DNA from: Patescibacteria group bacterium | GTDB taxonomy: Bacteria; Patescibacteriota; Minisyncoccia; Phycocordibacterales; CAIZLB01 | NCBI GenBank assembly: GCA_040384445.1 | Contig: JAZKJG010000004.1 | Coordinates: 1-55,107 of the forward strand | Reading direction: 5' to 3' | DNA: 55,107 bases | Shown: positions 8,988-46,929 of the stretch, piece after piece | How the letters are laid out: each line of letters opens with the position of its first letter | Position numbering within the stretch: the stretch's first letter is position 1 | Notes under the pieces: generated by a model | What the model saw: only the letters and a program-made list of their open reading frames with translations | Databases searched by the model: none | What the model was told of the DNA's origin: nothing | Position numbers and translations under genes: made by a program

Positions 8988-9006
8988 TTCATGTATAATA
9001 ATTACA

Positions 9007-9990
9007 ATGAATAATTTATCTGATTTTTTAAATCCAAATATATTCGCCGACGACGTAGAACAAGTTCCAATTCGAAAAGGATTTGGTGAAGGTTTAGTTA
9101 TTGCAGGTGAAGCAGATTCAAACGTAGTCGGTCTTTGCGCTGATCTTACAGAGTCAACACAGATGCTCGCATTTAAAAACAAATTTCCAAAGAGATTTAT
9201 AGAAATTGGAGTAGCGGAACAAAACCTCGCATCAGTGGCCTCAGGTATGGCGGCAATGGGAAAGGTGCCTGTAATCACATCATACGCAATGTTTTCGCCT
9301 GGACGTAACTGGGAGCAGATTAGAACCACTATTTGTTACAACGACAGAAAGGTTATTATTGCAGGATCTCACGCTGGAGTATCTGTTGGACCTGATGGAG
9401 GAACTCACCAGGCTATCGAGGATATTGCACTCATGCGAGTGATTCCAAACATGATTGTAGTTGCACCGTGTGATGCTATAGAGGCAAAGAAAGCTACGAT
9501 TGCATTGCTTGCAACAGGTCAAAAAGTACCTGCATATATTAGACTTGCTCGAGAAAAAACTCCGATTATCACGACGGATGAAACTCCTTTTGATATCGGG
9601 AAAGCTATGGTTATGTATGGAGACGAAAAGGCTTCTGATGTTCTTATTTGCGCCACGGGAGCAATGACTTTCAATGCAATGGCAGCAGCAAAAATTTTAG
9701 AACAACATCATGGAAAAAAAGTTGTGGTGATTCATTTCCATACTATAAAACCACTTGATGCAGAAACGCTTGTAGAATATGCAGAACACACAGTAAAAGT
9801 AGTCACTGTTGAAGAGCATCAGATCGCAGCTGGATTTGGAAGTGCGGTGTGTGAAGTTCTCTCTGAAAAATGTCCTCGACAGGTAATTCGACTTGGGGTA
9901 CATGATGTATTTGGTCAATCGGGTACACCAAAAGAACTCATTGCACACTATGGTATGGACACTGAGTCTATTGTAAAAAATTCTCTATAA
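9007..9990 (+). CDS. Transketolase, C-terminal (pyrimidine-binding + C-terminal domain) subunit
   Basis: FGEGLVIAGEADSNVVGLCADLTEST...FIEIGVAEQNLASVASGMAAMGKVP is typical of split transketolase C-halves. The ATG at 9007 sits 7 nt after TATAAT (8994-8999). The ORF-track start at 8926 lies inside the tRNA. Confidence 0.85.
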   Translation: MNNLSDFLNPNIFADDVEQVPIRKGFGEGLVIAGEADSNVVGLCADLTESTQMLAFKNKFPKRFIEIGVAEQNLASVASGMAAMGKVPVITSYAMFSPGRNWEQIRTTICYNDRKVIIAGSHAGVSVGPDGGTHQAIEDIALMRVIPNMIVVAPCDAIEAKKATIALLATGQKVPAYIRLAREKTPIITTDETPFDIGKAMVMYGDEKASDVLICATGAMTFNAMAAAKILEQHHGKKVVVIHFHTIKPLDAETLVEYAEHTVKVVTVEEHQIAAGFGSAVCEVLSEKCPRQVIRLGVHDVFGQSGTPKELIAHYGMDTESIVKNSL

Positions 9991-9992
9991 GA

Positions 9993-11036
9993 TTAGACCG
10001 TTGTAACAACCCAAGAAGCTGGAGCTTTCTCAATCCACTCAGTCAACTTTTCTTCAGTCAAAAGTCCTCGTTGTGCTCCGATGTCCTGACACACTGACAT
10101 AGAGTTAATTGATCCCCATACGAGCGCTGTGCGAATATCTTTTCCATGCGCGATCGCTACAGTAAATGTAGATGCAAATGCATCACCAGCCCCTGTACGC
10201 TCAAGTGGTGGCATAGGGTCTGGATAAATTGGTAAATGAATCACTGCTGTGTTTTCATCTATAGAAAGATTGTTCATATCAACATCATATGTATACGCTC
10301 CATCTGGACCATCAGTAATCACTGGTAGAGTTGGTCCAAGTTTTCGAAGTTCTGCAAGAAGGTGTTTTATACTATGGTCTTGGTTTTTATCTAATCCAAG
10401 AATTCGAACTGCTTCTTCTTTATTGCAGAAAAAGATATATGTTCGAGCGTAAATATCTTTCAGTGCTTCAACCCCAAATTTTATTTGAAATGTACCAGGT
10501 TGGAAAATAAGTTTCGTATCAGGGTTTGTTGAAAGATACTGAGAAACTTCTCCGTGGAATGGAAGTGAGTTTTCTCCAAGCGAACTTAAATATATAAATT
10601 TTGGTGCATGCAAATCTTTCGGCATGTGGTACTCATACAGGGCATGATTAATCAAAATAGTTCGTTCATCCTGAAACCAAAGTACATAGTGGTAGTTTGT
10701 TTTTTTATCATCATTTTTGTAAATGTAATCCGTAATCACTTTATCGTGGGCAAGCGCATCGATACTTTTTTGTCCGTATATATCATTTCCAACATTTGTA
10801 AGTAGGGCAGATGTTAATCCAAGTCGAGATGCAGACACTGCGGCGTTTGCACTATTTCCAACCCCTACGAGTTCAACCGCTTCTGTAAAAGGAACCTTGT
10901 CTCCAAACGGCATGCAAATAAGTTTTTGTTCTGTTTCTTTATCTTGATGTACTTCAGCAATTTTTAATTTGATAAATACATCAACTACGGTGTCTCCGAT
11001 AGCTAGAATGTCTATGTTGTGTTGGTTTGAGTTCAT
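9993..11036 (-). CDS. pfkB-family carbohydrate kinase (ribokinase-like)
   Basis: It has the GVGNSANAAVSASRLGL motif and the C-terminal TGAGDAFASTF (DTxGAGD-type) motif. Confidence 0.8.
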   Translation of the reverse strand: MNSNQHNIDILAIGDTVVDVFIKLKIAEVHQDKETEQKLICMPFGDKVPFTEAVELVGVGNSANAAVSASRLGLTSALLTNVGNDIYGQKSIDALAHDKVITDYIYKNDDKKTNYHYVLWFQDERTILINHALYEYHMPKDLHAPKFIYLSSLGENSLPFHGEVSQYLSTNPDTKLIFQPGTFQIKFGVEALKDIYARTYIFFCNKEEAVRILGLDKNQDHSIKHLLAELRKLGPTLPVITDGPDGAYTYDVDMNNLSIDENTAVIHLPIYPDPMPPLERTGAGDAFASTFTVAIAHGKDIRTALVWGSINSMSVCQDIGAQRGLLTEEKLTEWIEKAPASWVVTTV

Positions 11037-11111
11037 GACTACTATTATTACCTATATAGTTCAGATATAAAAGTTGTCATAGTTAAAAAATAGGTGTAAA
11101 CTTAAACCATT

Positions 11112-11357
11112 ATGGCAAACATACAATTTGATGAATCGCAATTTAAGTTGCGATCACGACGGCTATTAGGGGAACCAGAGGTTCCTGCGATGATTAAGTT
11201 TCTTGTTACAAGAGGTATAGTGAGAAGCGAAAAACAAGCGATATCAGTGCTTCTGACCATTGTACTCGTGATCGTTATGATAAGTATTTTTATTATTAAA
11301 TCTAACGGAGTACAGCCTGCAGTGCTTGATGCCGAATATTTAACTCTTAATAAATAA
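11112..11357 (+). CDS. Small single-pass membrane protein (81 aa)
   Basis: It has a TM segment (ISVLLTIVLVIVMISIFII). A promoter TTGTCA (11074-11079), 17-nt spacer and TAAACT (11097-11102) lies 9 nt before the ATG. Confidence 0.55.
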   Translation: MANIQFDESQFKLRSRRLLGEPEVPAMIKFLVTRGIVRSEKQAISVLLTIVLVIVMISIFIIKSNGVQPAVLDAEYLTLNK

Positions 11358-11363
11358 TCAGCC

Positions 11364-13029: not shown

Positions 13030-14184
13030 TTACGATGTGAATCCAGCACCTGCTACCCACCAAAATATTGCAAATCCTTGTACGGTTGCAAATAGAATAT
13101 AAACCATATTTCGCACGTCTTCATTTTTAATACACACTGCAAGAGCAATAGGAATCACGAATAAACTCGCAATGTATCTACTTGATCCTTCAATTACACC
13201 GGTAAGTGGCGTGAACAATATATATGATAATCCAAAGAGAGTATATGTGATAGGTATTTTTCTAGATGCCAAGCCAAGTGTTGCGAGCCCAAAGACGATA
13301 AATGAAGATGTCCAAAGGGAATATGGGTTCATACTTATAATATTTTTGATAAGTACGGTAAATGGCTCTGCCCAAATGTGTCTAAAGTGAGTTTGCTGCA
13401 TATGGATATATGCGAGAGGATCACCTGACACACTGTACATATGCAAACAATATAGAATAGGTAGCGCAAAAAGAGTTCCTGTATACAACAAGAGTTTTGA
13501 AAGTGATACTCTATGTCTATGTTGAAACAGAAAAAAGATAATCGGGATACAAAGAAAGATTCCAAATGTTTTCGTCAGGCATGCGATTCCAAAAAACAAA
13601 CATGCTAAAAATATTTTTTCAATTCTAACACAGTAAAATACCAAGATGCTGAGTAGTAGAAATAAAGATTCAGGATAGATTGCGGAAAGATAATATGAAG
13701 TTGGAAATAGAAGAGTATAGAGTAATACTTCTTTTTCTTGAACACCATGTTTTAGTTTTGGTTCAGATCGTATGAGCTGTACTAGATAATATAACGCGAG
13801 AAGTAAGAATACATTCGATAAGAAAATTCCAGCTACATGTGTGTTTCCAGAAAAAATCGCATGTGAAAAGATATACATCAGAAGAGGGTACATAGGTAGA
13901 AAACCTTTATTATCTTCTTTTGCGTATGGATATGGTTGAGCAGAGTATCCGTCTTCAGCAATACTAATATATCGTTTCGTGTCCCAAACAGACCATATAC
14001 TCACTAAAGGATTATCAGGTTGAATATATGTATAGGTATGGTCACCTTGATAAAAGTGCCAAATCGGCCTATCTCCGTGTATGTTCTTGGTTTGTAAATG
14101 GGCCACTAAAACAGTTGAAAACAGTCCGAGAAGAAGAATGAGGAGTCTGTTGAGTATAAAGTAGGAAAACAAAGGGGTTTTCAT
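13030..14184 (-). CDS. Polytopic membrane glycosyltransferase, PIG-V/GT-C-like
   Basis: It has about 10 predicted TM segments. The first loop motif WSVWDTKRYISIAEDGYS...GFLPMYPLL resembles the WD..hY..IA..GY...AFFPLyP signature of PIG-V-type mannosyltransferases. Confidence 0.6.
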   Translation of the reverse strand: MKTPLFSYFILNRLLILLLGLFSTVLVAHLQTKNIHGDRPIWHFYQGDHTYTYIQPDNPLVSIWSVWDTKRYISIAEDGYSAQPYPYAKEDNKGFLPMYPLLMYIFSHAIFSGNTHVAGIFLSNVFLLLALYYLVQLIRSEPKLKHGVQEKEVLLYTLLFPTSYYLSAIYPESLFLLLSILVFYCVRIEKIFLACLFFGIACLTKTFGIFLCIPIIFFLFQHRHRVSLSKLLLYTGTLFALPILYCLHMYSVSGDPLAYIHMQQTHFRHIWAEPFTVLIKNIISMNPYSLWTSSFIVFGLATLGLASRKIPITYTLFGLSYILFTPLTGVIEGSSRYIASLFVIPIALAVCIKNEDVRNMVYILFATVQGFAIFWWVAGAGFTS

Positions 14185-14218
14185 GCATGTATTCTAACAT
14201 AAGCCAAGGAAGGGTGTA

Positions 14219-14246
14219 TTGATAAATTTCAAAAATAGTGTATACT
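14219..14246 (+). promoter_or_regulatory. Promoter of rplY (leaderless-type spacing)
   Basis: TTGATA, a 16-nt spacer and TATACT are followed by the ATG 8 nt after the -10 box. Confidence 0.55.
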
Positions 14247-14254
14247 CATAAACC

Positions 14255-14878
14255 ATGACACATACACTAAACGCACAAGTATTCAGTGAAGCTACAGATA
14301 TGACGGGTCGAATCAAGGCCGTTGTATATGGTCCAAAGTTTCCCTCAACATCTATCTCAGTTGATGTTAAAGAGTTCACTAAGCTCTTTAAGGATGCCGG
14401 AGAATCATCAGTTATTACACTTAAAGGTCTGGATGCAGATCTAGATGTTCTTATCCACGAGGTTCAGAAGCATGTAGTAAAAGGAATTATTGTTCATGCA
14501 GATCTACTTGCATTACAAAAAGGACAGAAGATTACAGTACACGTACCACTTGTTTTTGTTGGAGTTTCTGGAGCAGTAAAGACTCACGGGGCAAACCTTG
14601 TAAAAGTTCTTCATGAAGTTGAAGTAGAAGCAGACGCAAAACATCTTCCTCACGAGATTGAAGTTGATATCTCAGCCATTGCAGAACTTGATGATCATAT
14701 TCTTGTTTCTGACCTAAAAGTTGGAGCAGGAGTTAAGGTCCTAGCTAACGAGACAGATGTTGTTGCTACGGCATCAAAGCCTGTTGAAGAAGTGGAAGAA
14801 TCAACACCAATTGATATGTCTGCAATCGAAGTTTCAGATCAAAAAGGTAAGAAAGACGAAGAAGAAGCAGCAGAATAA
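14255..14878 (+). CDS. rplY: 50S ribosomal protein L25/Ctc
   Basis: It shows L25 N- and C-domain patterns (GRIKAVVYG, VLIHEVQKH...IVHADL, ITVHVPLVFVG, LPHEIEVDIS) and an acidic tail. Confidence 0.85.
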   Translation: MTHTLNAQVFSEATDMTGRIKAVVYGPKFPSTSISVDVKEFTKLFKDAGESSVITLKGLDADLDVLIHEVQKHVVKGIIVHADLLALQKGQKITVHVPLVFVGVSGAVKTHGANLVKVLHEVEVEADAKHLPHEIEVDISAIAELDDHILVSDLKVGAGVKVLANETDVVATASKPVEEVEESTPIDMSAIEVSDQKGKKDEEEAAE

Positions 14879-14925: not shown

Positions 14926-14934
14926 TGGTACAAT
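14926..14934 (+). promoter_or_regulatory. Extended -10 (TGgTACAAT) 7 nt upstream of ATG 14942
   Basis: Read directly from the sequence. Confidence 0.5.
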
Positions 14935-14941
14935 AGAAGCT

Positions 14942-16282
14942 ATGAAATATGTTTTAGTTTTATGTTTTAGTATTGCCAGTTTTTTGACTATATATACATC
15001 TCTTGATGCGCAGGTGTTAGACTGTGTCAATCCAGAAAACAGAACTAGATGTTTGGCAGAGCTTGAGAAAGCAGAAAAAGAGATTGCGGAGCTTAATGTA
15101 CAACTTAAAAGTAAACGAAATGAAGCTGTGTCTATCGCACGAGATAAAGCATTGTTAGAGCTTCAGACAAAGCAGGCACAGCTTAAAATCAAGGCCCATG
15201 AGTATTCCATTGCAAAGCTTGGTAAGGATATTGTAACAAAAGAGGGAAATATTAAGACTCTAAATGGTCGTATTGATAAGAGTAAACAAGGGCTCTCAGA
15301 AATGCTTGTTCGAAGTCATGAACTAGACGATTTCTCTATGGTAGAGGTTTTGCTTGCACAAGAAAATTTATCAGGATTTTTTCAAGATATAGATGCATAT
15401 GGATCAATCCAATCTCGAATTAAGGACGAAATTTCATATATTAATAAAGATAAAACAGCAACTGAAAAAGAGAAAAAAGCTTTGGCTGTAGAGCGAGATA
15501 AAGAATACGATTCAAAATACGAAATCGAAGCTCAGAAAAAAGTAATCGAAAAAGCAGAAGCAGAGAAGCTTCGATTACTTAATTTAAATAAAAAAGAACA
15601 AGTAGCATATCAAGGTACACTTGCTCAGAAAAATGCAGAAGCAAACAGAATTCGAAATGCACTCTTTGCCCTTCGAGATACGGGATCAATTAAATTCGAA
15701 GATGCTGTGGCATATGCAAAAGCAGCAGGGCGAGCTGCTGGAGTACGACCTGCATTTATCCTTGCGATCTTGCAACAAGAAAGTAATCTAGGTTCAAACG
15801 TGGGTTCATGTTATTTATCAAATGCAGAAACTGGAGCTGGAGTAAAAGTAAGTTCAGGGGCGGCAGTTGCAAATGTAATGAAGGCGTCACGAGACATTCA
15901 ACCGTTCTTGAGAATTACAAAAGCACTCGGAAAAGATCCATTCAAGACTCGTGTATCATGTCCGCTTAGTATTGGATATGGAGGAGCTATGGGACCAGCT
16001 CAGTTTATTCCATCAACATGGCAGATCTTTGAATCGCGTATTGCTAAGGCAAACGGAGGAGGGACCGCTAACCCTTGGAATGCTAAAGATGCCTTTACTG
16101 CCTCAGCCTTATACCTAGGAGACCTAGGAGCAACGGCTCAGACTGCTGCTTCAGAGCGAAATGCAGCTTGTAAATACTACTCAGGAGCATCATGTGGAAG
16201 TCGGGGAAATACAAGTTACGGTGATCAGGTTATGGCCCGAGCCCTCAAACTTCAAGCAGATATTGATTTAATTCAGGATTAA
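14942..16282 (+). CDS. Secreted coiled-coil protein with C-terminal lytic transglycosylase (MltB/SLT-like) domain
   Basis: It has a signal peptide and a long Lys/Glu coiled coil. The motifs AILQQESNLGSNVGSC and GAMGPAQFIPSTW indicate the transglycosylase domain. Confidence 0.75.
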   Translation: MKYVLVLCFSIASFLTIYTSLDAQVLDCVNPENRTRCLAELEKAEKEIAELNVQLKSKRNEAVSIARDKALLELQTKQAQLKIKAHEYSIAKLGKDIVTKEGNIKTLNGRIDKSKQGLSEMLVRSHELDDFSMVEVLLAQENLSGFFQDIDAYGSIQSRIKDEISYINKDKTATEKEKKALAVERDKEYDSKYEIEAQKKVIEKAEAEKLRLLNLNKKEQVAYQGTLAQKNAEANRIRNALFALRDTGSIKFEDAVAYAKAAGRAAGVRPAFILAILQQESNLGSNVGSCYLSNAETGAGVKVSSGAAVANVMKASRDIQPFLRITKALGKDPFKTRVSCPLSIGYGGAMGPAQFIPSTWQIFESRIAKANGGGTANPWNAKDAFTASALYLGDLGATAQTAASERNAACKYYSGASCGSRGNTSYGDQVMARALKLQADIDLIQD

Positions 16283-16290
16283 TGTATAAT
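16263..16290 (+). promoter_or_regulatory. Promoter of rpmE inside the 3' end of the upstream gene
   Basis: TTGATT, a 16-nt spacer and TATAAT are followed by the ATG 8 nt downstream. Confidence 0.55.
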
Positions 16291-16298
16291 GGGGTTCT

Positions 16299-16544
16299 AT
16301 GAAAAAAGCTATACATCCAACATACTTCACTGACGCAGTTTTCACATGCGCATGTGGAGCTAAGTACACTATGGGTTCTACAAAAGAGAAACATGCTGTT
16401 GAAATCTGCGCAGCGTGCCATCCTTTTTATACTGGAAATGAAAAAATTGTAGACACTGCAGGACGAGTTGAGAAATTCAAGGCTCGACAGACAGCTGCTG
16501 GAAAAGCACCTGCAAAGAAGACTACAAAAAAAGCAGCTAAATAA
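16299..16544 (+). CDS. rpmE: 50S ribosomal protein L31
   Basis: MKKAIHPTY...CACGAKY...[10 protein letters not shown] shows the Zn-ribbon type CxxC pairs. Confidence 0.9.
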
Positions 16545-16557
16545 CTTTTAGCCTGTA

Positions 16558-16589
16558 CAGAAAAGAGCTCATACCAGAGCTCTTTTCTG
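16558..16589 (+). terminator. Hairpin terminator after rpmE
   Basis: A perfect 13-bp stem CAGAAAAGAGCTC/GAGCTCTTTTCTG encloses the loop ATACCA. Confidence 0.6.
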
Positions 16590-16628
16590 CTATACTACCG
16601 TTATGGAAGTACAAGATAATAAAAACCC

Positions 16629-17684: not shown

Positions 17685-20600
17685 ATGTGCAGAACTTTCC
17701 ATTTACAAAAAGTAATTCAAAGCATATTCCTTATCTTAGGGATATTTTTTGTTACGCAAGGGAGTATTCAGGCGGCGCTTCCTTCACAAGCTTTTCGGTT
17801 TCAAGGTCAACTGTACTCTAGTGGTACACCTGTGGACGGTGCGGTCTCGGCAACATTCACTTTTTATGATTCTGAATCCGGAGGATCTCAAACTGGTTCA
17901 ATCATCTCAAAAACTATTCAGGTAAGTAACGGATATTTTGGCGCCGTATTTGACGATGTTGACACTTCTGGTGTTGATTTTAATCAAGCGCTGTACATTG
18001 AAATAAGTATCAATGGAACAACCTTGTCTCCACGCTCAGCTGTCTCATCTTCACTCATATCAAATAATACATTTGGTGTGTTTACGTATACAAGCACTCC
18101 GGCAGTTGGAAAAAAAGGATCGCTCTATTACAACTCAACTCTTGATGAACTCTTTGTCTCAAAAGGTACGAGTTGGGTTAATGCAGGAACATCTTCTTCT
18201 ACAGCACAATGGTTTAATAACGGAAGTGATTTGTACTTCACAACTGGAAATGTAGGAATCGGAACATCAACACCTGCTGACAAACTTTCTGTAGTTGGAA
18301 CTGTTCGAGCGACATCATTTGTTGGAGACGGATCACAGTTGACTGGAATTCCTGTACTTTCAACATCAAGTGTTCGAAGTATGTTTTCATCAACTGCAAC
18401 GGGGTTAACATACACAGCTGGAACTGGAGTATTCTCACTTGCTGCAGGTTATGTAATTCCACTCACTGCCTCAACAACTGAGTGGGCAACATTTTTCAAT
18501 ACACCATCATCTCAAATCATCGCAGGAACAAATCTTGCATGGAGTGGTAACACTATAAATTTTAATGGAATACTGCCAATCGCAAATGGTGGAACAGGTA
18601 CAACGACCACCCCAACAATTGGAAAACTTTTGCTAGGTAATGCTTCAGGTGGGTATGATCTGGTGGCAACATCTTCACTCGGAATATCTGGCGGTAGTGG
18701 ATCTCTCTCTGGTGGAACTAATGGATATCTTGCACGGTGGATAGGCACTTCGACATTGAGTAGTGGTTTATTTATGGACAATGGAACTGTTGCTGGAATT
18801 AATGCAACTTCTTCAAGTTACACGTTTAATATAAGGGGTACAGCTGGATTATTGCCTTTCAATGTTGCCTCATCTACAGGAACTTCACTTTTCAGCATTG
18901 CACAAAATGGAAATGTTAGAATTGATTCTGCAGATACTTTATATAAATTAAATGTTGGAGGAAATGCAGTGTTTGGAGCATCAAGTAAATTTGTGGTTGC
19001 AACTGATTATGCTGGTTTAGGGGATTTGCCTGCAGGATCATTTCTTGGTGGGGCAGGAGCTGCTAGCGGAAGTTTAGCTTTCGCACCATCTTCAGATGTT
19101 GGTGCAGTTGGTGCGAAAATGGTGCTTGCGTACTATAATGGTGCGTGGAAATCTGCATTAGAGTATGCCAACACATCAGGGGGATATACTACGCTTGCAC
19201 TACAAAAAGGAGGTGGAAATGTTGCAATTAACACAACAACAGCAAACCATCCACTTGATGTAAATGGAATTATCAATAGTCAGACAGGTAGTATCTATCT
19301 ACGAAGAAATTTAACAAACGATGCAAATAGAAGAAACTGGGGATTTCAAACTGAAGTATCTAACATTGGAGATTTCCAATTGCAAGTTTCAACTACAAAT
19401 ATTGGCGCCCCTACAACTGCAGTTCTCACTGCTCTCTTAAGTGGAAACGTTGGAATTGGAGTTGCAACACCACTTGCAAAATTGGCAGTCATTGGAACAG
19501 GTTCGAATGATATACTCAGTGTTTTGACGTCAGGAGGAACGAGTGCATTTGTAGTGAAGAGTACTGGATCTGTTGGTATAGGTATAGCATCGCCAGGGCA
19601 CACACTAGATTTAGGGGCTGTAAGTCCAACTCTAAACGTTGGGCTATATGGAGGTGGAGGTGCTGCAACTATTCGTATGTTAGGGGAAGCATTATTTTAT
19701 TTCTCTGGTGGATCAGTCGGATCAGCTATTGGAATAGGATCAGCTGACACTACAGCTGATTTCGACCTCGCATTCCATGCTGGAGGTTCGAACAGAATGT
19801 TTGTCGATGGGGCGACTGGCTACGTCGGAATTGGAACTTCAAACCCAGTTGCAAAATTACAAATTGGTACAGCTGGAAGTGTGTTGAGTAACCCTAACGG
19901 TATCTCAATTGTTGGTGGTGATTTGAATCTCGACAACGGGAGTGGTTCAACTGATAACTCTATTTACTTCCGATATCAAAACACTTTCTCAACTATTAAA
20001 TCTGATGCGGGTCTTACATTTCAAACAGGTGCCTCTCCCACAAACAGACTCTCAATAACTGCATTAGGTAATATAGGAATCGGAACAACAACACCTTCTG
20101 CATCACTCACTGCTTCAGGGACAATTAGATTTACAAGCTTAGGTTCTGGAGGCGCAAACCTTATTACTGACTCGCTTGGAAACGTAACCGTATCATCGGA
20201 CGAGCAACTCAAAGATATTCAAGGAGAGTTTAAGAGCGGCTTAGAAAAGATTTTAGGAATTAATCCTATATTATATAAATGGAAAGATACAACAGGATAC
20301 GATACTACAAATATATATGCCGGATTTTCAGCGCAAAATGTTAAATTAATGATTCCAGAAGCGGTTACAACTGATGCACGAGGTTTTCTTACTCTTGCAG
20401 ATCGTCCTATTCTTGCAACACTTATAAATGCAATAAAGGAGCTTGCGTTAAAGTTTGAAAATTTTGGAAAACAAGTTGAAACAGAAGAATTGTGTATTAA
20501 AAAGAAAGATGGAACAAAAGTATGTCTTACAGCGGAGCAACTAGAAACTGTTCTTGCGGGTGAGGGAATTCAGAATACTGTCGTGTCTACTCCTGCTCCT

Positions 20601-20789: not shown

Positions 20790-20802
20790 ATCAAAAAAAA
20801 AG

Positions 20803-20838: not shown

Positions 20839-20843
20839 AGCTC

Positions 20844-20975: not shown

Positions 20976-20977
20976 GT

Positions 20978-36395: not shown

Positions 36396-36404
36396 TGCTA
36401 GAAT
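36396..36404 (+). promoter_or_regulatory. Extended -10 (TGcTAGAAT) 7 nt upstream of ATG 36412
   Basis: Read directly from the sequence. Confidence 0.5.
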
Positions 36405-36411
36405 GGGCAAC

Positions 36412-38062: not shown

Positions 38063-39337
38063 ATGGCACATAAAAGTAAAAAAGCAGGTGACTGGAATAT
38101 TGCACTCTATCTTGCTGTTCGACAATTGAAGCATGCAAGTTTGTGGACTACATCATTGATTGTTGCGGTGATGATGCTTACATTTCTAAACCTTGTAGTG
38201 GTAAATGGTATTCTAGTAGGATTGATTGAAAGTTCTATTCAAGGAAGTAAAGATAAATATTCTGGAGATGTTATCATTTCTACGCTTCGACAAAAAGCAA
38301 TTATTGAAAATAGTGCAGAGATTCAGCAAATTCTTACAAGTCTTCCGAACGTAACTGATGTAATTCCCCGAGTTCTTGCAGGTGGAAAAGTACAAGCAGA
38401 ATACAGAAAGTTATTGCGACAAGAGGAAACTCCAAACGAAGCACAGGTAACTGTAGCAGGTATTGATCCGAGTCTCGAAGATAAAGCAACAAATCTTTCT
38501 AAGTTTGTGATTGATGGAACATATCTCGATGAGGCAGATCGTGACGGTATTTTGATTGGTGCTTTTTTGATAAATGAATTGACTCCGATTGATAACGCAG
38601 GATTTCCACAGCTTCGTGGTGTAAAAATTGGTGACAGAGTAAAACTGACAGTTGATAAAAATAGTAAAGAAGTATTTATTCGAGGAATTTTAAAATCTAA
38701 GATTGATCAGATTGATGCCCGTGTATTTATCGTGCAGCCTGAACTTCGAAAATTAATTGGTCGAAGTGATGTGAACGTAAGTGAGATTGCGGTGAAGTTG
38801 ACACCAGGAAGCACAGAGGAAGATGCGGTACGTGTGAAAACAATTCTTGAAGCAAACGGATATGAGTATGATGCAAAAATTCAAACAGCAACAGAAGCTC
38901 AGCCAAAGTTCTTGAAAGATATGAAAGATATTTTTGGACTTCTTGGAACACTCATGGGAAGTATTGGTTTGGTTGTGGCTTCTATTACTGTATTCATTGT
39001 GATTTTCGTAAACACATTAACACGAAGAAAATTTATTGGAATTCTAAAGGGAATTGGAATCTCTTCAAAATCAATTGAGTACTCGTATATTATTCAATCT
39101 GCTTTTTATGCGCTTCTCGGAGCAGGGTTGGGTACTTTAATCCTGTATGGATTCTTGGTGCCATTTATTGATGCACACCCAATTCCATTTCCATTTAGTG
39201 ATGGTATCTTATATGCACCGCTTCTCGGAACATTCTGGAGAGCGTTTGCCTTATTTGTGGTAACAGTTGTTGCTGGATATATTCCTGCTCGTATGATCGT
39301 GGGGAAAAATACACTCGACTCTATTTTAGGTAGATAG
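38063..39337 (+). CDS. FtsX/MacB-type ABC transporter permease
   Basis: It has an N-terminal TM segment, a large extracytoplasmic domain and a C-terminal FtsX-like 3-TM bundle (FGLLGTLMGSIGLVVASITVFIV...RKFIGILKGIG). Confidence 0.8.
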   Translation: MAHKSKKAGDWNIALYLAVRQLKHASLWTTSLIVAVMMLTFLNLVVVNGILVGLIESSIQGSKDKYSGDVIISTLRQKAIIENSAEIQQILTSLPNVTDVIPRVLAGGKVQAEYRKLLRQEETPNEAQVTVAGIDPSLEDKATNLSKFVIDGTYLDEADRDGILIGAFLINELTPIDNAGFPQLRGVKIGDRVKLTVDKNSKEVFIRGILKSKIDQIDARVFIVQPELRKLIGRSDVNVSEIAVKLTPGSTEEDAVRVKTILEANGYEYDAKIQTATEAQPKFLKDMKDIFGLLGTLMGSIGLVVASITVFIVIFVNTLTRRKFIGILKGIGISSKSIEYSYIIQSAFYALLGAGLGTLILYGFLVPFIDAHPIPFPFSDGILYAPLLGTFWRAFALFVVTVVAGYIPARMIVGKNTLDSILGR

Positions 39338-40472
39338 CTTTCGTTTTCTCAACCATTGTTTCTATGGTAAATAAATCTTTTGTTTTTGCATTGAGTGCTG
39401 CTGCTTGTTTTTTTGCTGCATCCTGATTGTCTATATATGTATATATTGCATCCACGAGCGGTTGCACTTTTCCTGGTTCAACTAATCTTCCATCTACATT
39501 ATGTTCAACCACCTCTGAAATACCACCAACGTCAGATGCGATCACAGGTAATTCTGCAAATCCTGCTTCAACAATCGCGTATGGTAAACCTTCAGATAAT
39601 GAAGGGAACAGGTAATAATCAAATCCTTTTAAATAATTTGCTGCATCTTTTATGTATCCAAGTAAGAATACTCTATCAAGAATATTTCTGTAAATAATCT
39701 CCTTTTTTAGCTCATTTTCAATTTCACCTGCTCCAATAATCGCATATCTAATCTGGAGAGTTGGTCTTTCTTTTAAAATCTGATCGATAGCTTTTATTGC
39801 ATGCATGTGTCCTTTGATTGGGTGAAGTTCACCAACACTTCCAAATACTATTACGTTATCTGAAAACGTATGATCTGAAATTTTACTGAACTCTGCTCGA
39901 GCCTCTGTTTTAGAAAGAAAGTGAGGAGTAAGAATCCCGTTATGGATAACAGTTAATTTCTTTTTACTCACTGGCCATCTTTTAATATCTTTTACGATTT
40001 TATGTGAGACTGCAATTACGTTGTGTGAGAGTAATAGCATAATCATATACAGACCTTTGATAATCAGTTTAGAGAAACTAGATCTATCTTCATTGAATGC
40101 CCATCCGTGCACTGTAAAAATAATATTTTTTACACCCAACAATCTTCCTGCAACTGCTCCGAGCCCGCTTATCTTAGTGCTATTTACATGAATAATATCT
40201 GGTCGCTCCTTTCTAATAATTTTTATAATATTCACAAATGAAAAGATGTCTTTAGTTAGACTAATGTCTCGTTGCATAGTTTCAAGCTCGATAACATTAA
40301 TTTTTGCCTCAACCAGCTTTGTATACAGTAAATCTTTTCCTCCAAGCGCCACAGTGATATCAAAATGTTCCTGAGAAAGATTTGTAGCGATATCGAACAC
40401 ATACTTTTGAGCACCGCCCCAGTTTGATTTCGTGATGAAGATGATGACTTTTTTTCGTGTGTGGTTTGTCAT
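39321..40472 (-). CDS. GT4-family glycosyltransferase
   Basis: It has the C-terminal FPSLSEGLPYAIVEAGFAELPVIASDVGGISEVV (E-x7-E type) motif. Its 3' end overlaps the convergent 38063..39337 gene by 17 nt. Confidence 0.85.
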   Translation of the reverse strand: MTNHTRKKVIIFITKSNWGGAQKYVFDIATNLSQEHFDITVALGGKDLLYTKLVEAKINVIELETMQRDISLTKDIFSFVNIIKIIRKERPDIIHVNSTKISGLGAVAGRLLGVKNIIFTVHGWAFNEDRSSFSKLIIKGLYMIMLLLSHNVIAVSHKIVKDIKRWPVSKKKLTVIHNGILTPHFLSKTEARAEFSKISDHTFSDNVIVFGSVGELHPIKGHMHAIKAIDQILKERPTLQIRYAIIGAGEIENELKKEIIYRNILDRVFLLGYIKDAANYLKGFDYYLFPSLSEGLPYAIVEAGFAELPVIASDVGGISEVVEHNVDGRLVEPGKVQPLVDAIYTYIDNQDAAKKQAAALNAKTKDLFTIETMVEKTKAIYLK

Positions 40473-40537
40473 ATATAGTTAATGTTTACATAGATAAAGG
40501 GTGTTGTAAATGGAGCATTCATGCTACAATCCCACAC

Positions 40538-41887
40538 ATGGACATCGCAACACGCGTTCAATACAGAGAAAAAATCGGCCTATTTTTAGGGGACGTGTTT
40601 GTAGTCACTTTGTCTCTCTGGTTAAGTAGTATTATACGAAATACCTCTTTTCCATCAGGTGTTGAGTTTTTAAATTTTATTGCCCCATTTTTATATGTGG
40701 CTCCGGTTTGGTTTCTACTGTTCGTTATTGGTGGATTGTATGAGGGTCAGACGTTGGTTACGAAAAGAAAGATGCCAAAAGCAATTGCAGTTGTGCAATC
40801 TATAAATATTATTATTACGATTGTATATTTTTATCTTTTCTCTTCATATAATTTGGCGCAAGCAACCCCTAAAACTATTCTTGTACTGTATGCCGCGATT
40901 TCAATCAGTCTTTTGTTTGTGTGGAGATTGTATGTGTTTCGGTTTTTGTCAGAGGGAAGAAGAATAAAAGCATTGCTTATTGCATCTGGCCACGAACTCA
41001 TAGAATTAAAAGATGAGATTAACAACAATCCTCGATACCCATTTATTTTTGAAAAAACAATAGATCTTGATATGGTAGATTTTATTGATAAATCTGATAT
41101 TGGTGAATACGATGTCGTTGTTGTTGAAAGTCAGCATGCAAAAGCTCGGAAACTTTTGTCTTCTGTGTATCATGAATTATTTTTAAATAAAGGAAAAAAC
41201 TATTTAGATTTTGTGGATCTGTATGAAGAAGTATTTAAAAGAATTCCATTATCCTCGCTTAGTTATCAATGGTTTCTTGGAAATATTTCTGTAGTAGAGA
41301 AGAAAGTATACGACAGTATTAAAAGAATTATGGATATTGTACTTTCACTTATTTTGGCAATTCCACTTATTCTACTCTATCCGTTTGTCGCACTCGCAAT
41401 TAAACTGGAAGATAAAGGTGAAGTTTTTATTACTCAAACTCGCTTAGGTGAAAGGGGTGAGATTATTGATATAAAAAAGTTTAGATCAATGACTGGAAAT
41501 AAAGATGGTGTATGGATTGGGGAAGAAGGATCACTCAAGGTTACGAAAGTAGGTTCATTTTTAAGAAAAAGTAGAATTGATGAATTACCACAAATTATTT
41601 CAATTCTGAAAGGTGATTCTTCTCTTGTTGGACCGCGTGCTGATTTGAAAGGTTTAAGTGAGAGATTGATGCTTGAGATTCCATACTATGAAGCTCGGTA
41701 TATTGTAAAACCAGGTTTGTCAGGATGGGCCCAGGTAACACAAGAAGGACTTCCTCCGCAAAGTGTAGATGAGACAAAATTAAGATTGTCATACGATCTG
41801 TATTACATAAAACATAGATCTATTTTGCTTGATTTGATCATTGCGCTCAAGACGATAAAGACTCTTTCTATGAGAGTTGGAGTGTAG
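40538..41887 (+). CDS. Polyprenyl-phosphate sugar phosphotransferase (WbaP/bacterial sugar transferase family)
   Basis: KRIMDIVLSLILAIPL...KFRSM...RIDELPQIISILKGDSSLVGPRA matches the family. I prefer the ATG at 40538 over the track start at 40457. Confidence 0.85.
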   Translation: MDIATRVQYREKIGLFLGDVFVVTLSLWLSSIIRNTSFPSGVEFLNFIAPFLYVAPVWFLLFVIGGLYEGQTLVTKRKMPKAIAVVQSINIIITIVYFYLFSSYNLAQATPKTILVLYAAISISLLFVWRLYVFRFLSEGRRIKALLIASGHELIELKDEINNNPRYPFIFEKTIDLDMVDFIDKSDIGEYDVVVVESQHAKARKLLSSVYHELFLNKGKNYLDFVDLYEEVFKRIPLSSLSYQWFLGNISVVEKKVYDSIKRIMDIVLSLILAIPLILLYPFVALAIKLEDKGEVFITQTRLGERGEIIDIKKFRSMTGNKDGVWIGEEGSLKVTKVGSFLRKSRIDELPQIISILKGDSSLVGPRADLKGLSERLMLEIPYYEARYIVKPGLSGWAQVTQEGLPPQSVDETKLRLSYDLYYIKHRSILLDLIIALKTIKTLSMRVGV

Positions 41888-41899
41888 TATACTCAGCTC

Positions 41900-42955
41900 A
41901 TGAATCACACTGTTTTTATTACTGGAGCGGCTGGATATATAGGAGCAATGCTTGCGCATCAATTTGCTGGTCGGGATGATGTACGACAGATTGTTTGTCT
42001 AGATAGAGCTGCGCGACCGCAACTTCTTGAGGGTGTGTCAAAAATTATTTGGATTCAAGCATTTACAAATGACTCAACGTGGCAAAAGAGTGTTGCCGAG
42101 TACAATCCAGATATTGTTATTCATACAGCGTGGCAGATTAGAGAATTTTATGGAAAAGGAAAAGAACAGTGGCAACTTAATGTGGTTGGATCAGATCATG
42201 TATTTGAATTTGCGTTTTCAACACCATCAGTAAAAAGACTGGTTCACTATTCGACAGTCGCATCATATTCTGCACTTCCTGAAAATACGTATGAACATGT
42301 GTTTACTGAAGATGTGCCATTTCGAGATAGTGAATACTTGTATGCGCAGGAAAAGAAAGTAACGGAAGAACATCTGAAGGCTCTCTATGAAAAGGCAAAA
42401 AAAGAAAGAGCTCCGTATCCTCAAATTTCAATTATCCGTCCTGCATCTATCACTGGACCAAAAGGAAGATATTCTCGGAAAAATTTTGGATTGCAATCTG
42501 CATTGTCAGGTCAATTGAAAGAAACATTTGCCCAACGACTTGTAACAAGATTGCTTGCGTGGATGCCAATAACTCCACTATGGTGTCGACAGTTTGTGCA
42601 TGAAGATGATATTGCAGATATTACTGCACTCTTGGCATTTGGTCCAACAAATCACGAATACGAAGCATTTAACGCATGTCCACTAGGTTCAATTGTAACT
42701 GGAAAAGATATGGCCCGGGCAGTAGGAAAAAATACCATTACACTTCATCCACAAATTATTCGAGCAGTATTTTTTGTTGCGTGGCATCTCTCACGTGGAG
42801 GTATCCCGACATCACCTGGGGGATGGAAAACATATTCATACCCAATTGTTGTGGATGGAACTAAGATTTCTAAAAAATATGGATATACATACAAAATGAG
42901 TCCCAAAGATGCATTTACAAAAAAAGAAGGACGATACATGCAATACGTAAAATAA
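41900..42955 (+). CDS. NAD-dependent epimerase/dehydratase (SDR family)
   Basis: It has the Rossmann motif VFITGAAGYIGAML and a YxxxK context (YAQEKK). Confidence 0.8.
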   Translation: MNHTVFITGAAGYIGAMLAHQFAGRDDVRQIVCLDRAARPQLLEGVSKIIWIQAFTNDSTWQKSVAEYNPDIVIHTAWQIREFYGKGKEQWQLNVVGSDHVFEFAFSTPSVKRLVHYSTVASYSALPENTYEHVFTEDVPFRDSEYLYAQEKKVTEEHLKALYEKAKKERAPYPQISIIRPASITGPKGRYSRKNFGLQSALSGQLKETFAQRLVTRLLAWMPITPLWCRQFVHEDDIADITALLAFGPTNHEYEAFNACPLGSIVTGKDMARAVGKNTITLHPQIIRAVFFVAWHLSRGGIPTSPGGWKTYSYPIVVDGTKISKKYGYTYKMSPKDAFTKKEGRYMQYVK

Positions 42956-44061: not shown

Positions 44062-44178
44062 ATATGTAAATAAAGAAACATGATGGTTTTTTCCCCGGAT
44101 GGCCAAGCGAATACGAGTCCGCAGGGTCAGTTGGTAATACTATCATAACTATCTAAAATATTGTATAGTGATATCCAC

Positions 44179-45960
44179 ATGCAGATTAGAAACTTCAGTA
44201 TCATAGCCCACATTGACCATGGTAAGTCGACCTTAGCTGACCGAATGCTCGAACTCACACAGACCGTTGAGAAGCGAAAAATGACAGCCCAAGTCCTAGA
44301 TGACATGGAACTTGAGAAGGAAAAAGGTATCACCATTAAGATGCGTCCTGTTCGAATGGAATATAAAGGATACGTATTAAACCTGATCGACACTCCAGGA
44401 CACATCGACTTTTCATATGAGGTATCACGAGCCCTTCGAGCAGTAGAAGGGTGTATTTTGCTTGTAGATGCAACTCAAGGAGTACAAGCACAAACACTCA
44501 CAACACTCAGAGCCGCGCAAGAAGTTGGTCTTACAATTATTCCGGTACTTTCAAAAGTTGATTCACCAATCGCTCGAATTGATGATATTAAAAAAGAGGT
44601 ATGTACACTACTTTCATGTTCTCCAGAAGATGTGCTTTTAACATCTGGAAAAACTGGAGAAGGCGTTGATATTCTTTTAGAAAAAATTATTAATACAATT
44701 CCTGCACCAACATACGAGTACGAAGGGAGAGATGAATTTAGAGCACTCGTGTTTGATTTTCAATATTCAAACCACCGAGGGGTTATTGTATATATCCGAG
44801 TGACAGATGGGTCTGTAAAAAAAGGAGATGAGTTGTTGTTTAAAATTGCAGGACAGAAATTTTTCGCCCTTGAGGTCGGTGTATTTACTCCACAAGAAAA
44901 ACCAGTTGATGTACTTGAGAAAGGGGCGATTGGATATATTGTAACTGGTATTAAACAATCTGGAGTTGCAACAGTTGGAGATACGATCACTCTATTTAAA
45001 AAACAGTTACCAGAACTTGATGGATATATGAAGCCTGCACCAGTTGTATGGGCAAGTATTTTTCCAGAAGATGCAGATGATTTTGAATTGTTAAAGCAGT
45101 CACTTGGAAAATTGTCTTTGTCTGACTCCGCATTTTCATATGAAGAAGAAAGTTCAGGAAGTATGGGACGAGGATTTCGATCAGGATTTCTTGGGCTACT
45201 TCACCTGGAAATTATTACAGAACGGTTGAAACGAGAGTATAATCTTTCGCTTGTGATTGCGACGCCGAGTATTACATATGAAGTAACCTTGAAAGATGGA
45301 AAAACGAAAACTGTATATTCACCGTCTCTTTTCCCGGAACATGGGCAGGTTGTAAAAGTTCGAGAGCCATGGATAAAAATGCAAATAATCACCCCAGAAG
45401 TCTATGCTGGTGCAATTTATCAATTGCTCTATGATCATGAAGGGGATTTGATTGAGACAGAAAACTTTGGAGACGGGAGATTGACGCTGACTATTTTAAT
45501 GCCGCTTCGAGAGTTGATGCGAAACTTTTTTGATGAACTGAAAAGTGTTTCTTCAGGATATGGATCTTTATCGTATGAATTTTTTGAAATGCAAGACGCA
45601 GATGTGACTCGAATGGATATTTTAGTTGCCGATGAACCAGTCGAAGCATTTACACGAGTGATCGCATCAAGACGTGCAGATGATGAGGCAAACAAAGCTG
45701 TAGATAAACTTGAAAAACATTTACCACGACAAATGTTTAATACAAAAATTCAAGCTAAAGTTGATGGACGAATTATTGCATCCCGAACACTTTCTGCAAT
45801 GCGAAAAGATGTAACAGGACACTTGTATGGAGGAGATGTGAGTCGAAAAAATAAACTTCTTGATAAGCAGAAGAAAGGAAAGAAAAAAATGGAAGAAAGA
45901 GGAAAGGGCAAGGTAACGATCTCACACGAGGTGTTTTTGAAGATGATGAAGAATGGGTAG
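44179..45960 (+). CDS. lepA: Elongation factor 4 (LepA)
   Basis: IRNFSIIAHIDHGKSTLADR...LIDTPGH.DF...NK.D matches LepA, including the LepA-specific C-terminal domain. The ATG lies 9 nt after TATAGT (44164-44169). Confidence 0.95.
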   Translation: MQIRNFSIIAHIDHGKSTLADRMLELTQTVEKRKMTAQVLDDMELEKEKGITIKMRPVRMEYKGYVLNLIDTPGHIDFSYEVSRALRAVEGCILLVDATQGVQAQTLTTLRAAQEVGLTIIPVLSKVDSPIARIDDIKKEVCTLLSCSPEDVLLTSGKTGEGVDILLEKIINTIPAPTYEYEGRDEFRALVFDFQYSNHRGVIVYIRVTDGSVKKGDELLFKIAGQKFFALEVGVFTPQEKPVDVLEKGAIGYIVTGIKQSGVATVGDTITLFKKQLPELDGYMKPAPVVWASIFPEDADDFELLKQSLGKLSLSDSAFSYEEESSGSMGRGFRSGFLGLLHLEIITERLKREYNLSLVIATPSITYEVTLKDGKTKTVYSPSLFPEHGQVVKVREPWIKMQIITPEVYAGAIYQLLYDHEGDLIETENFGDGRLTLTILMPLRELMRNFFDELKSVSSGYGSLSYEFFEMQDADVTRMDILVADEPVEAFTRVIASRRADDEANKAVDKLEKHLPRQMFNTKIQAKVDGRIIASRTLSAMRKDVTGHLYGGDVSRKNKLLDKQKKGKKKMEERGKGKVTISHEVFLKMMKNG

Positions 45961-45972
45961 GTTGAAAATAAG

Positions 45973-46001
45973 TTGACGTACAGTCTTAGGTATGGTTAAA
46001 T
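45973..46001 (+). promoter_or_regulatory. Promoter of islet F ORF
   Basis: TTGACG, a 17-nt spacer and TGgTTAAAT. Confidence 0.5.
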
Positions 46002-46031
46002 ATAAATGATTCTTTAACCCATGAACCTTTT

Positions 46032-46424
46032 ATGAATTTTCACCAAGTTTGTCAGATAATAGGTGTTCCTCTTTACATGTTTCTGGACAACAAGGGACTT
46101 GAACATTTTGGAGGTTTTTTTAATATGCCGAAGAGGTACGATGCGTCCGATGCTGCTCTGTTCATCAGTGGATTGGTGGCATGTGTTCCGATTCCAATTA
46201 CCCTTGGAACACATGCTCTTGCACGTAGTTTTGTTGCAACAAGTCTCCCTCGACCACCACGATGGTGTGTGCCCGCATCTGAGGATGGTGCGGTGATGTA
46301 TTACCAACACGGTTGTTTGCACACGGTGATAATCGCAGATCCTGGTCCTGTGTGGGAAATAAGGGATTTATGCTTTATCTGCATTCCAGTCGGTCAAACG
46401 CTCGACCAAACACTCGTCATGTAA
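46032..46424 (+). CDS. Cys-rich hypothetical protein (130 aa), GC-richer islet F
   Basis: This is a track ORF. I chose the strand from the upstream promoter and the downstream terminator, because other frames and strands are also open here. Confidence 0.4.
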   Translation: MNFHQVCQIIGVPLYMFLDNKGLEHFGGFFNMPKRYDASDAALFISGLVACVPIPITLGTHALARSFVATSLPRPPRWCVPASEDGAVMYYQHGCLHTVIIADPGPVWEIRDLCFICIPVGQTLDQTLVM

Positions 46425-46437
46425 TCCTCTCAACAAC

Positions 46438-46470
46438 AAAAACCGCCCCTCTCACGAGGTGCGGTTTTCT
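46438..46470 (+). terminator. Hairpin terminator after islet F
   Basis: AAACCGC...GCGGTTT with a 14-nt loop, then TTTTCTTT. Confidence 0.45.
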
Positions 46471-46480
46471 TTATAAAAAA

Positions 46481-46591
46481 TTATGTAAATAATATAGGCA
46501 AGTATGCAGCAACCATTCCAATAATCATAAGAAGTGCAATAATAGCCCATATAATCTGAACTTTTTGTCGGTGCTTTGGGTTAAGAAACAT
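46481..46591 (-). CDS. 36-aa single-TM mini-protein (MFLNPKHRQKVQIIWAIIALLMIIGMVAAYLPILFT)
   Basis: I translated it by hand (under 60 aa, so absent from the track). An extended -10 TGcTACTAT (46599-46607, minus strand) lies exactly 7 nt upstream of its ATG, the same architecture as the core genes. Confidence 0.5.
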   Translation of the reverse strand: MFLNPKHRQKVQIIWAIIALLMIIGMVAAYLPILFT

Positions 46592-46608
46592 GGTATACAT
46601 AGTAGCAG

Positions 46609-46929
46609 ATGAGAGAATTTCAGGCAAGAAAAAAACAATACGCTAATTGGCAAAAAATTATTCATTCAAAATGGTTTTTGATAGTTCTTTGTGTGTTGGT
46701 ATTCTTTCTTTCACGAGGTTTACTGCGGATGTACGGGAAGTACCGTGAAGTGAGGCATAATTTTGATACACTACATGCTGATATGGATCATTTGCAGAAT
46801 AGAGAGAAAGAGCTGAACAGAAACATCCGACGGATTAATGGGGTAGAGGGAAGGGACTATGAAATTCGGAAAAAACTTGATGTAGTAAAGCCTGGTGAGA
46901 AGGTGTTGTACATCATGGATACACCATGA
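46609..46929 (+). CDS. Septum formation initiator (FtsB/DivIC-like)
   Basis: It has an N-terminal TM segment, a coiled coil and the motif EIRKKLDVVKPGEKVLYI. It is the only core CDS ending in TGA. Confidence 0.7.
   Translation: MREFQARKKQYANWQKIIHSKWFLIVLCVLVFFLSRGLLRMYGKYREVRHNFDTLHADMDHLQNREKELNRNIRRINGVEGRDYEIRKKLDVVKPGEKVLYIMDTP

Follow-up and report, generated by a model that had tools for sequence, protein, structure and literature searches.

Promoter-type -10 boxes placed just before start codons suggest leaderless mRNAs in a Parcubacteria bacterium that lacks the anti-Shine-Dalgarno sequence in its 16S rRNA

How are translation starts selected in a bacterium whose 16S rRNA has lost the sequence that pairs with a Shine-Dalgarno (SD) motif? 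The question is raised by a 55.1-kb stretch of DNA (contig JAZKJG010000004.1, positions 1 to 55,107; the whole of it is called the window below), in which hexamers resembling the -10 box of bacterial promoters stand a few nucleotides (nt) upstream of many ATG codons. The window opens with the 3' end of a 16S rRNA gene (1-64, + strand), which Infernal aligned to positions 1470-1533 of the SSU_rRNA_bacteria model (E = 9.4e-10). At 51-64 the tail reads GGAUUUAUUCAAGU where the model consensus has GGAUcACCUCCUUu, and CCUCC is absent; downstream of the conserved GGAU, UUAUUCAAG is found in place of CACCUCCUU, and the anti-SD is therefore missing, as a preliminary description of this DNA had stated. 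More sequence from the source genome and a full 16S were sought among contigs, which yielded only an 8.9-kb contig that itself lies inside the window. The 16S end is followed by a hairpin at about 78-95 (CCUCUUUAGGGAGG) and by a 450-nt, very AT-rich spacer before the protein genes (window 1-513). Neither a 23S rRNA nor a tRNA gene follows the 16S 3' end, and the rRNA genes therefore appear to be unlinked.

The window is coding-dense, with about 38% GC, three tRNA genes and genes chiefly on the + strand. Pfam and NCBIfam models identified bL25, bL31, RF1, uS2, EF-Ts, iPGM, enolase, Dus, a clamp-loader subunit, RNase J, LepA, FtsB/DivIC, a glutaredoxin and an FKBP isomerase, together with glycosyltransferases and very large surface proteins. 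Its nearest LepA relatives, at 80 loci, all come from metagenome-assembled genomes of the Patescibacteria, or candidate phyla radiation (CPR), of the Paceibacteria/Parcubacteria type; amino-acid identity does not exceed 84%. The window organism is a Paceibacteria/Parcubacteria bacterium whose 16S rRNA has no anti-SD. It resembles, in lineage and in a 16S tail without CCUCC(U), the anti-SD-lacking Parcubacteria surveyed by Tsurumaki et al. (2022, RNA 28:1041; PMC9297842), who found CCUCCU in only 48% of Parcubacteria and concluded that SD helices probably do not form. These authors linked the loss of the anti-SD in Parcubacteria to loss of ribosomal protein uL1; they proposed no initiation mechanism and mentioned neither promoters nor leaderless mRNAs (PMC9297842). 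The locus of the uL1 gene, rplA, lies outside the window.

The preliminary description had listed 12 pairs of a -10 box and an ATG, separated by 7-10 nt, and had taken them as a sign of pervasive leaderless mRNAs. All 12 pairs are present in the sequence with the coordinates and spacers it gave. The list was incomplete, since at least seven more sites of the same kind were found (14184(-), 30714, 40538, 41900, 47220, 21951 and 6736), and two of its hexamers, TATACA at 21229-21234 and 46594-46599, are weak, with no conserved final T. The effect of position is real; the range of 7-10 nt was slightly long, the mode being 6-7 nt.

The test of positional enrichment that the preliminary description had called for was run on the window and on the 80 closest LepA loci, taken from one-genome-per-species GTDB contigs (1.28 Mb, 1001 usable genes). 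Open reading frames (ORFs) were called mechanically, the first in-frame ATG was taken as the gene start, and one pipeline served both samples. TANNNT beginning at -12 to -16, which corresponds to a spacer of 6-10 nt, preceded 19 of the 46 first-ATG starts in the window, against 201 of 2103 other ATGs (9.6%) on both strands (binomial p = 1.4e-8). Across the 1001 genes of the related loci the start position of TANNNT displayed a single sharp peak at -12 (0.19 vs a background of 0.027), with shoulders at -13 to -17 and with the TGn extension enriched. Matched control ATGs were drawn from the same neighbourhoods (out-of-frame, later in-frame, and in-frame beyond the upstream stop). At -12 the motif preceded 18.6% of first in-frame ATGs and 2.2-3.1% of the controls; for -12 to -15 the figures were 38.5% and about 10%. 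The modal spacer between box and ATG was thus 6 nt, followed by 7-9 nt. An unbiased count of the hexamers at -12 to -7 was headed by TATAAT (30, with 1.6 expected), TAAAAT (29), TAATAT (12), TAGAAT (11) and TATACT (10). When the count was reversed and made from every strong box in the loci, an ATG lay 6 nt downstream in 5.4% of cases against about 1.5%, and spacers of 7-9 nt were enriched to a lesser degree. The signal was specific to ATG: the box stood before 20% of ATG starts and before 4.5-5.9% of first candidates that were GTG or TTG.

No SD signal was seen in any of the gene classes in which it was sought. SD-like 4-mers preceded 3.9% of starts in the 80 loci against 6.3% in a control interval, i.e. 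they were depleted; in the window itself they preceded 2 of 46 starts. GGAG, GAGG and AGGA ran flat at background level upstream of the 1001 starts. Staphylococcus phage K (100 kb, 31% GC), an AT-rich genome that uses SD sequences, gave the reverse picture in the identical pipeline, with TANNNT at -12 in 1% and SD-like sequences in 65%. This control and the same-neighbourhood ATGs led us to reject AT-richness alone as the source of the peak. An artefact of the first-ATG rule, by which in-frame TAA or TAG stop codons would accumulate at -12, was likewise rejected: TA[TC]NNT at -12 reached 8.8% against about 2%, TGnTA[TC]NNT 5.0% against at most 0.3%, and positions -9, -15 and -18 were not raised. 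Between loci, SD use and box frequency were weakly correlated (r = -0.30), because almost all of the sampled relatives lack SD sequences.

The composition of the motif points to transcription. Among genes with the hexamer at -12, T stood at -15 in 66%, G at -14 in 60% and T at -17 in 65%, which gives the extended -10 consensus TnTGnTAnAAT. TGn preceded 41% of start-proximal boxes and 9% of hexamers at -70 to -30, and a -35-like hexamer was found 16-18 bp upstream of 10-12% of boxes, as compared with 5% at control spacings. The arrangement is like that of sigma-70 extended -10 promoters, in which TG lies one base upstream of TAnnnT and the -35 element is dispensable. We also considered that the motif might be a new kind of SD sequence adapted to the altered 16S tail, and rejected this, as the duplex energies of its consensus forms with the window tail were about 0 to -0.9 kcal/mol, as opposed to -12.2 kcal/mol for the SD:anti-SD pair of E. 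coli. Moreover, strong terminator hairpins (z = -5.6 to -10.2), following tRNA-Ile, tRNA-Thr and rpmE, end 0-10 nt before three window boxes. Because they abut the boxes of ATGs 9007, 22672 and 16603, there is no room for another promoter at these sites. On this sequence evidence the motif is a sigma-70-type promoter element, often an extended -10 with little or no -35, and not an mRNA signal. At E. coli-type promoters the usual transcription start is the seventh base after the -10 box; with the hexamer at -12 to -7, that base is the A of the ATG.

The pairing of box and start codon recurs in orthologues. In the genes for HlyD-type proteins, TGcTAGAAT with a 7-nt spacer in the window corresponds to TGcTATACT with 6 nt in locus L001 and to TGcTATAAT with 9 nt in L002, beside the same Met and amid upstream sequence that is not conserved. 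For lepA, 43 of 77 orthologues carry TANNNT at a spacer of 5-10 nt, 24 of these with TGn; 27 of 50 glutaredoxin orthologues carry a box. A pfkB-family kinase gene, at 11036(-), has TGcTACAAT and TGtTAGAAT, each with 6 nt, in two relatives, the window's own box being degenerate. The minus-strand site of the preliminary description opens an unlisted ORF for a single-helix membrane protein of 36 amino acids (aa) at 46481-46591(-) (MFLNPKHRQKVQIIWAIIALLMIIGMVAAYLPILFT; MFLNPKHRQK...). This ORF adjoins lepA in most of the 80 relatives, and 36 of its 43 orthologues have a box at a spacer of 5-10 nt, 27 of the 43 with the full TGnTANNNT, in most cases 6-7 nt from the ATG. The ORF and ftsB are arranged head-to-head; 17 bp separate their ATGs, and both -10 boxes fall within this interval. 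As judged from these alignments, the spacing between box and ATG is kept while the flanking sequence drifts. Spacers of 5 to 13 nt occur among ftsB orthologues, and in the closest relative (L001, about 11969) a GTG occupies the aligned start with TATAGT 5 nt upstream, which may be a non-AUG exception to the ATG-specific pattern. The gene for the C-terminal half of transketolase is operon-internal and box-less in two relatives, and is boxed in the window, where it follows a tRNA gene and a terminator. This gene (9007-9990) is part of a split transketolase and encodes the pyrimidine-binding and C-terminal domains only; the gene directly before it in L033 and L014 is presumably the N-terminal half, from which it is separated in the window.

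We hypothesize the following course of initiation. A sigma-70-type -10 box, often of the form T-n-TG-n-TAnAAT and with its last base 6 nt (range 5-9) before the ATG, would direct RNA polymerase to begin transcription on the A of the ATG, or no more than 1-3 nt from it. With transcription starting at the ATG, the mRNA would begin with AUG, and a ribosome with initiator tRNA bound could then load on it directly, with no need for SD:anti-SD pairing. Leaderless translation of this sort is established in Actinobacteria, Deinococcus, archaea and for the cI mRNA in E. coli. We put at roughly 0.8 the probability that most sites with a 6-8 nt spacer yield mRNAs with leaders of 0-3 nt. The leaderless part of the earlier proposal is therefore supported by the position and nature of the motif, by the absence of SD and anti-SD and by conservation. 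The word pervasive holds only in the sense that roughly 40% of genes overall, and around half of those that do not directly follow another gene, carry a -10 box.

The other genes follow a different arrangement. Box-less genes cluster at stop-to-ATG gaps of -4 to +5 nt, and at gaps of 6 nt or more 40-59% of genes carry a box. Box frequency is 12.6% at gaps of up to 20 nt against 17-31% at larger gaps, and is near chance at 5 nt or less. The linkers before box-less internal genes are A-rich (about 0.5), G-poor and without SD, whereas boxed genes show no A-richness in the last 6 nt. Such genes, most of which overlap the preceding gene by up to 4 nt or start no more than 5 nt past its stop codon, may be translated by termination-reinitiation coupling or by SD-independent initiation on unstructured RNA. 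The tight coupling is exemplified by prfA, which abuts or overlaps the rpmE stop codon (TAGATG, TAAATG, TAATG) in many more distant, higher-GC relatives (L096, L103-L105, L108, L110, L120, L141, L143 and L145).

The leaderless reading should nevertheless be held with some caution, since several observations weigh against it. The 9-10 nt spacers of lepA, ftsB, rpsB and the gene at 11112 imply leaders of 1-4 nt and not of zero, and the two TATACA hexamers lack the conserved final T. A generic -35/-10 scan returned 32 matches against 39.7 in shuffled sequence; it is not above the shuffles, and support from -35 elements is therefore weak. The gene starts of the relatives were set by the simple first-ATG rule and not by a trained gene finder, and a literature search found no published transcription start site or RNA data for this lineage. 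There are also leadered genes. In the window the ATG of prfA (16629) lies 26 nt past ATG 16603, which gives a 26-nt leader and is a counter-example; close relatives keep the terminator and TGtTATACT with a spacer of 12-29 nt, which implies leaders of about 5-22 nt. A second case is the strong leadered unit at 20800-21158(-), which is unannotated and occupies the 455-nt "gap" before rpsB. Its promoter, TTGACT-18-TGgTATAAT, is close to consensus and is followed by a leader of about 25 nt; two small ORFs for membrane proteins (21097-20978, 39 aa; 20975-20844, 43 aa), separated by 2 nt, and a strong terminator at 20800-20845 complete the unit. Because prfA and this unit are leadered, SD-less initiation on leaders must also work in the organism. 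Leaders of about 25-45 nt appear to be a minority, represented by these two and by candidates at 33579 and at the 25192(-) ORF. When a position weight matrix (PWM) was used to gauge the share of leadered promoters, matches between 13 and 150 nt upstream were about as frequent as chance predicts for AT-rich spacers.

The same observations have to be set against other explanations. If AT-rich intergenic DNA (38% GC) places TANNNT near many ATGs, the preliminary description might simply have picked those that fitted. Single matches are indeed common, at 2-4% per position, some of the listed hexamers are weak, and the generic scan gave no excess. Yet the peak at -12 rises 6- to 8-fold above matched ATGs of the same intergenic regions, and a control richer in AT shows the motif in 1%; with the contrast in TGnTA[TC]NNT, the p-value in the window and the conservation in orthologues added, coincidence is hardly credible. 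Another possibility is that the motif acts in the mRNA, as a non-SD ribosome-recognition element or an A/U-rich enhancer about 6-12 nt before the AUG of leadered transcripts that start further upstream, comparable to what GeneMarkS-2 describes as "group B" in Bacteroidetes. The need for SD-independent initiation on leadered mRNAs (prfA, internal genes) speaks for such an element, as does the occurrence of the motif before 12.6% of genes with gaps of up to 20 nt. Against it stand the sigma-70 extended -10 consensus of the motif (TG at -15/-14, T at -17), accompanied by -35-like hexamers at 16-18 bp, and its inability to pair with the 16S tail. In addition, box-less internal genes carry a different, A-rich signature, three of the boxes have a terminator ending 0-10 nt upstream of them, and the signal is absent before GTG and TTG candidates. 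We consider it quite improbable.

It could also be that the promoters are real and that initiation is spread, so that most mRNAs have leaders of 3-12 nt and are bound by 30S subunits, with no true leaderless loading of 70S ribosomes. The enrichment of spacers of 8-12 nt is in line with this, and so are the variable spacing in ftsB and lepA orthologues (5-13 nt) and the prfA relatives, in which leaders of 5-22 nt arise from the same promoter. The sharpest mode is nonetheless a 6-nt spacer, with 7 nt next, which puts the canonical start on the A of the ATG, and the strict preference for ATG fits recognition of a 5'-terminal AUG. Spread initiation is in our judgement unlikely, and we favor leaderless mRNAs at the closely spaced sites.

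Comparison with known systems helps to place the clade. In GeneMarkS-2 "group C" genomes, mainly Actinobacteria (e.g. Mycobacterium tuberculosis) and Deinococcus-Thermus, the first genes of operons, where leaderless, have a Pribnow box 6-8 nt upstream of the start codon, and 25-50% of transcripts are predicted to be leaderless; these genomes keep the anti-SD, and their leadered and internal genes use SD sequences (PMC6028130). That paper names no CPR genome (PMC6028130). The clade is like group C in the sharp placement of the -10 box about 6-8 nt upstream of the start (peak spacer 6, shoulders 7-9), and like its leaderless genes in the AUG start codon and the lack of an SD between promoter and start. 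It differs in the absence of the anti-SD, the depletion of SD sequences everywhere, the low GC content and promoters that are largely of the extended -10 type. We set it apart from plain group C because the remaining genes show no SD, only A-rich, G-poor linkers; the most apt description is a combination of leaderless initiation with tight coupling, in a lineage where an SD system is wholly lacking. In having little or no SD, and A-rich, G-poor sequence before the starts of box-less genes, it is also like Bacteroidetes (group B). Bacteroidetes mRNAs are leadered, and their promoter consensus is a different one (-7 TAnnTTTG). The group B motif stands before first genes and internal genes alike, so that it cannot be a promoter (PMC6028130). 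Unlike it, the motif described here is a sigma-70 extended -10 and is 2-3 times rarer at gaps of up to 20 nt. Mitochondrial small-subunit rRNA also lacks an anti-SD. The leaderless promoter of the archaeal "group D" has a TATA box at about -26 (PMC6028130). Group D and mammalian mitochondrial mRNAs offer an analogy only, that of a terminal or near-terminal 5' AUG used without SD pairing, with another promoter type and another transcription machinery. Full-text literature searching for leaderless mRNAs in CPR, Patescibacteria, Parcubacteria and Saccharibacteria returned nothing relevant. In the literature consulted, loss of the anti-SD in Parcubacteria is on record without a tie to leaderless mRNAs.

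A wider proposal follows the same lines. An entire branch within the Parcubacteria might have abandoned SD:anti-SD pairing and let transcription starts define translation starts. Leaderless mRNAs, short and often of a single gene, would make up most of its transcription units, their extended -10 promoters lying immediately behind the terminator or stop codon of the gene before, and nearly all of the other genes would reinitiate no more than 5 nt after a stop. We would give this generalization an even chance.

Individual sites in the window vary in strength. The terminator hairpin after tRNA-Ile (8942-8989, + strand) has a folding energy of -18.4 kcal/mol (z = -10.2), and 4 nt separate its end from the box of the transketolase C-terminal-half gene, TATAAT with 7 nt to ATG 9007 (8994-9009, +). 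The orthologue alignment with L006 begins at this Met, and a longer version of the ORF would overlap tRNA-Ile. At 22611-22674 (+) the terminator after tRNA-Thr is followed by TATACT (22660-22665) and, after 6 nt, by ATG 22672; TATATA (22658-22663) with 8 nt, the box of the preliminary description, is present as well, and TATACT is the better reading. The alternative ATG 22621 falls inside the terminator hairpin. The rpmE terminator leads into TGcTATACT, 6 nt before ATG 16603, which opens a 12-codon mini-ORF (16554-16605, +) that overlaps the prfA start in another frame. This mini-ORF was rejected as a conserved regulatory upstream ORF, being absent from L084-L086 although the promoter is kept, and is therefore probably incidental. 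A programmed frameshift of the RF2 type upstream of prfA was also rejected, as the gene encodes RF1 and the frame of the mini-ORF does not fit.

Three sites of the preliminary list have -35-like hexamers: TTGTCA, 17 nt, TAAACT and 9 nt before ATG 11112, a putative gene of 81 aa without family match (11074-11114, +); TTGATA, 16 nt, TATACT and 8 nt before ATG 14255, ribosomal protein bL25 (14219-14257, +); and TTGATT, 16 nt, TATAAT and 8 nt before ATG 16299, ribosomal protein bL31, whose Pfam match runs from residue 1 (16263-16301, +). The tsf gene has TAAAAT and 8 nt before ATG 21951 (21937-21953, +), with TTTACA 17 nt upstream of the box. Extended boxes precede ATG 14184 of a PMT_2-like glycosyltransferase (TGtTAGAAT, 6 nt; 14182-14199, -; PWM 11.4 bits), ATG 14942 of an SLT-domain protein (TGgTACAAT, 7 nt; 14926-14944, +), ATG 30714 of an ABC-2 permease (TGaTAGTAT, 6 nt; 30699-30716, +), ATG 32548 of a clamp-loader protein resembling DNA polymerase III delta' (TGaTACAAT, 7 nt; 32532-32550, +), ATG 36412 of the HlyD-type fusion protein (TGcTAGAAT, 7 nt; 36396-36414, +) and ATG 46591 of the 36-aa membrane ORF (TGcTACTAT at 46607-46599, 7 nt, ORF 46591-46481; 46481-46607, -). 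TGcTACAAT with 7 nt before ATG 40538 (40522-40540, +) suggests this codon as the true start of a sugar-transferase gene for which the ORF list has GTG 40457. Plain hexamers stand before ATG 41900 of an epimerase gene (TATACT, 6 nt; 41888-41902, +), directly after the upstream stop codon, before ATG 44179 of lepA (TATAGT, 9 nt; 44164-44181, +), before ATG 47220 of the FKBP-type isomerase gene (TAATAT, 6 nt; 47208-47222, +) and before ATG 6736 (TAAAAT, 7 nt). The weak sites are those of rpsB, where TGaTATACA ends in A and lies 10 nt from ATG 21245 (21226-21247, +), and of ftsB/DivIC, where TGgTATACA lies 9 nt from ATG 46609 (46591-46611, +) and CATAGT with 5 nt is an alternative. The S2 Pfam domain begins at residue 12 of rpsB and favors 21245 over TTG 21206. 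As a means of choosing starts, which the preliminary description had suggested, the box agrees with independent evidence at 9007, 22672, 36412 and 44179; at 21245 that evidence is the position of the S2 domain.

Some features of the window lie outside this question. About 520 nt at 45961-46480 contain no confident gene, only a 130-aa ORF on the + strand and a 102-aa ORF on the - strand, neither of which has homologues in the loci. Many relatives have the 36-aa ORF within about 15-200 nt downstream of lepA, and this region therefore looks like an insertion. Rfam searches of the gene-poor segments 45900-46650 and 20700-21300 gave nothing credible. A cluster of glycosyltransferase, sugar-transferase and epimerase genes (39321-42955) separates an FtsX-like permease (38063) from an ABC ATPase (42959); as these two are adjacent in the syntenic loci L001-L003, the cluster is likely an insertion of cell-surface glycan genes. 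Very large surface proteins are predicted at 2337-6725 (1462 aa), 17685-20789 (1034 aa) and 50898-55107 (more than 1403 aa, continuing past the end of the window). Domains such as Laminin_G_3, DUF2341, SdiA-regulated, Peptidase_S74, fn3 and purple-acid-phosphatase-N occur in them, a surface repertoire typical of CPR episymbionts.

Much of bacterial diversity belongs to the CPR, or Patescibacteria, almost all of which are known from sequence only. The published survey found about half of the Parcubacteria to be without an anti-SD and did not say by what means their ribosomes locate start codons. The pattern reported here offers a concrete and testable answer, namely promoter-defined leaderless starts together with tight stop-start coupling. 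It matters when gene finders that assume a ribosome binding site model are run on such genomes, where the boxes may correct gene starts (for example 9007, 22672, 36412 and 40538) and reveal small genes such as the conserved 36-aa membrane ORF. These bacteria would also be a natural system for the study of ribosomes that work without the SD helix. If the wider proposal is true for such a branch, the published account of anti-SD loss in Parcubacteria would gain the mechanism that it lacks, and the main selector of the start site in this bacterial lineage would be the promoter, and not contact between mRNA and rRNA.

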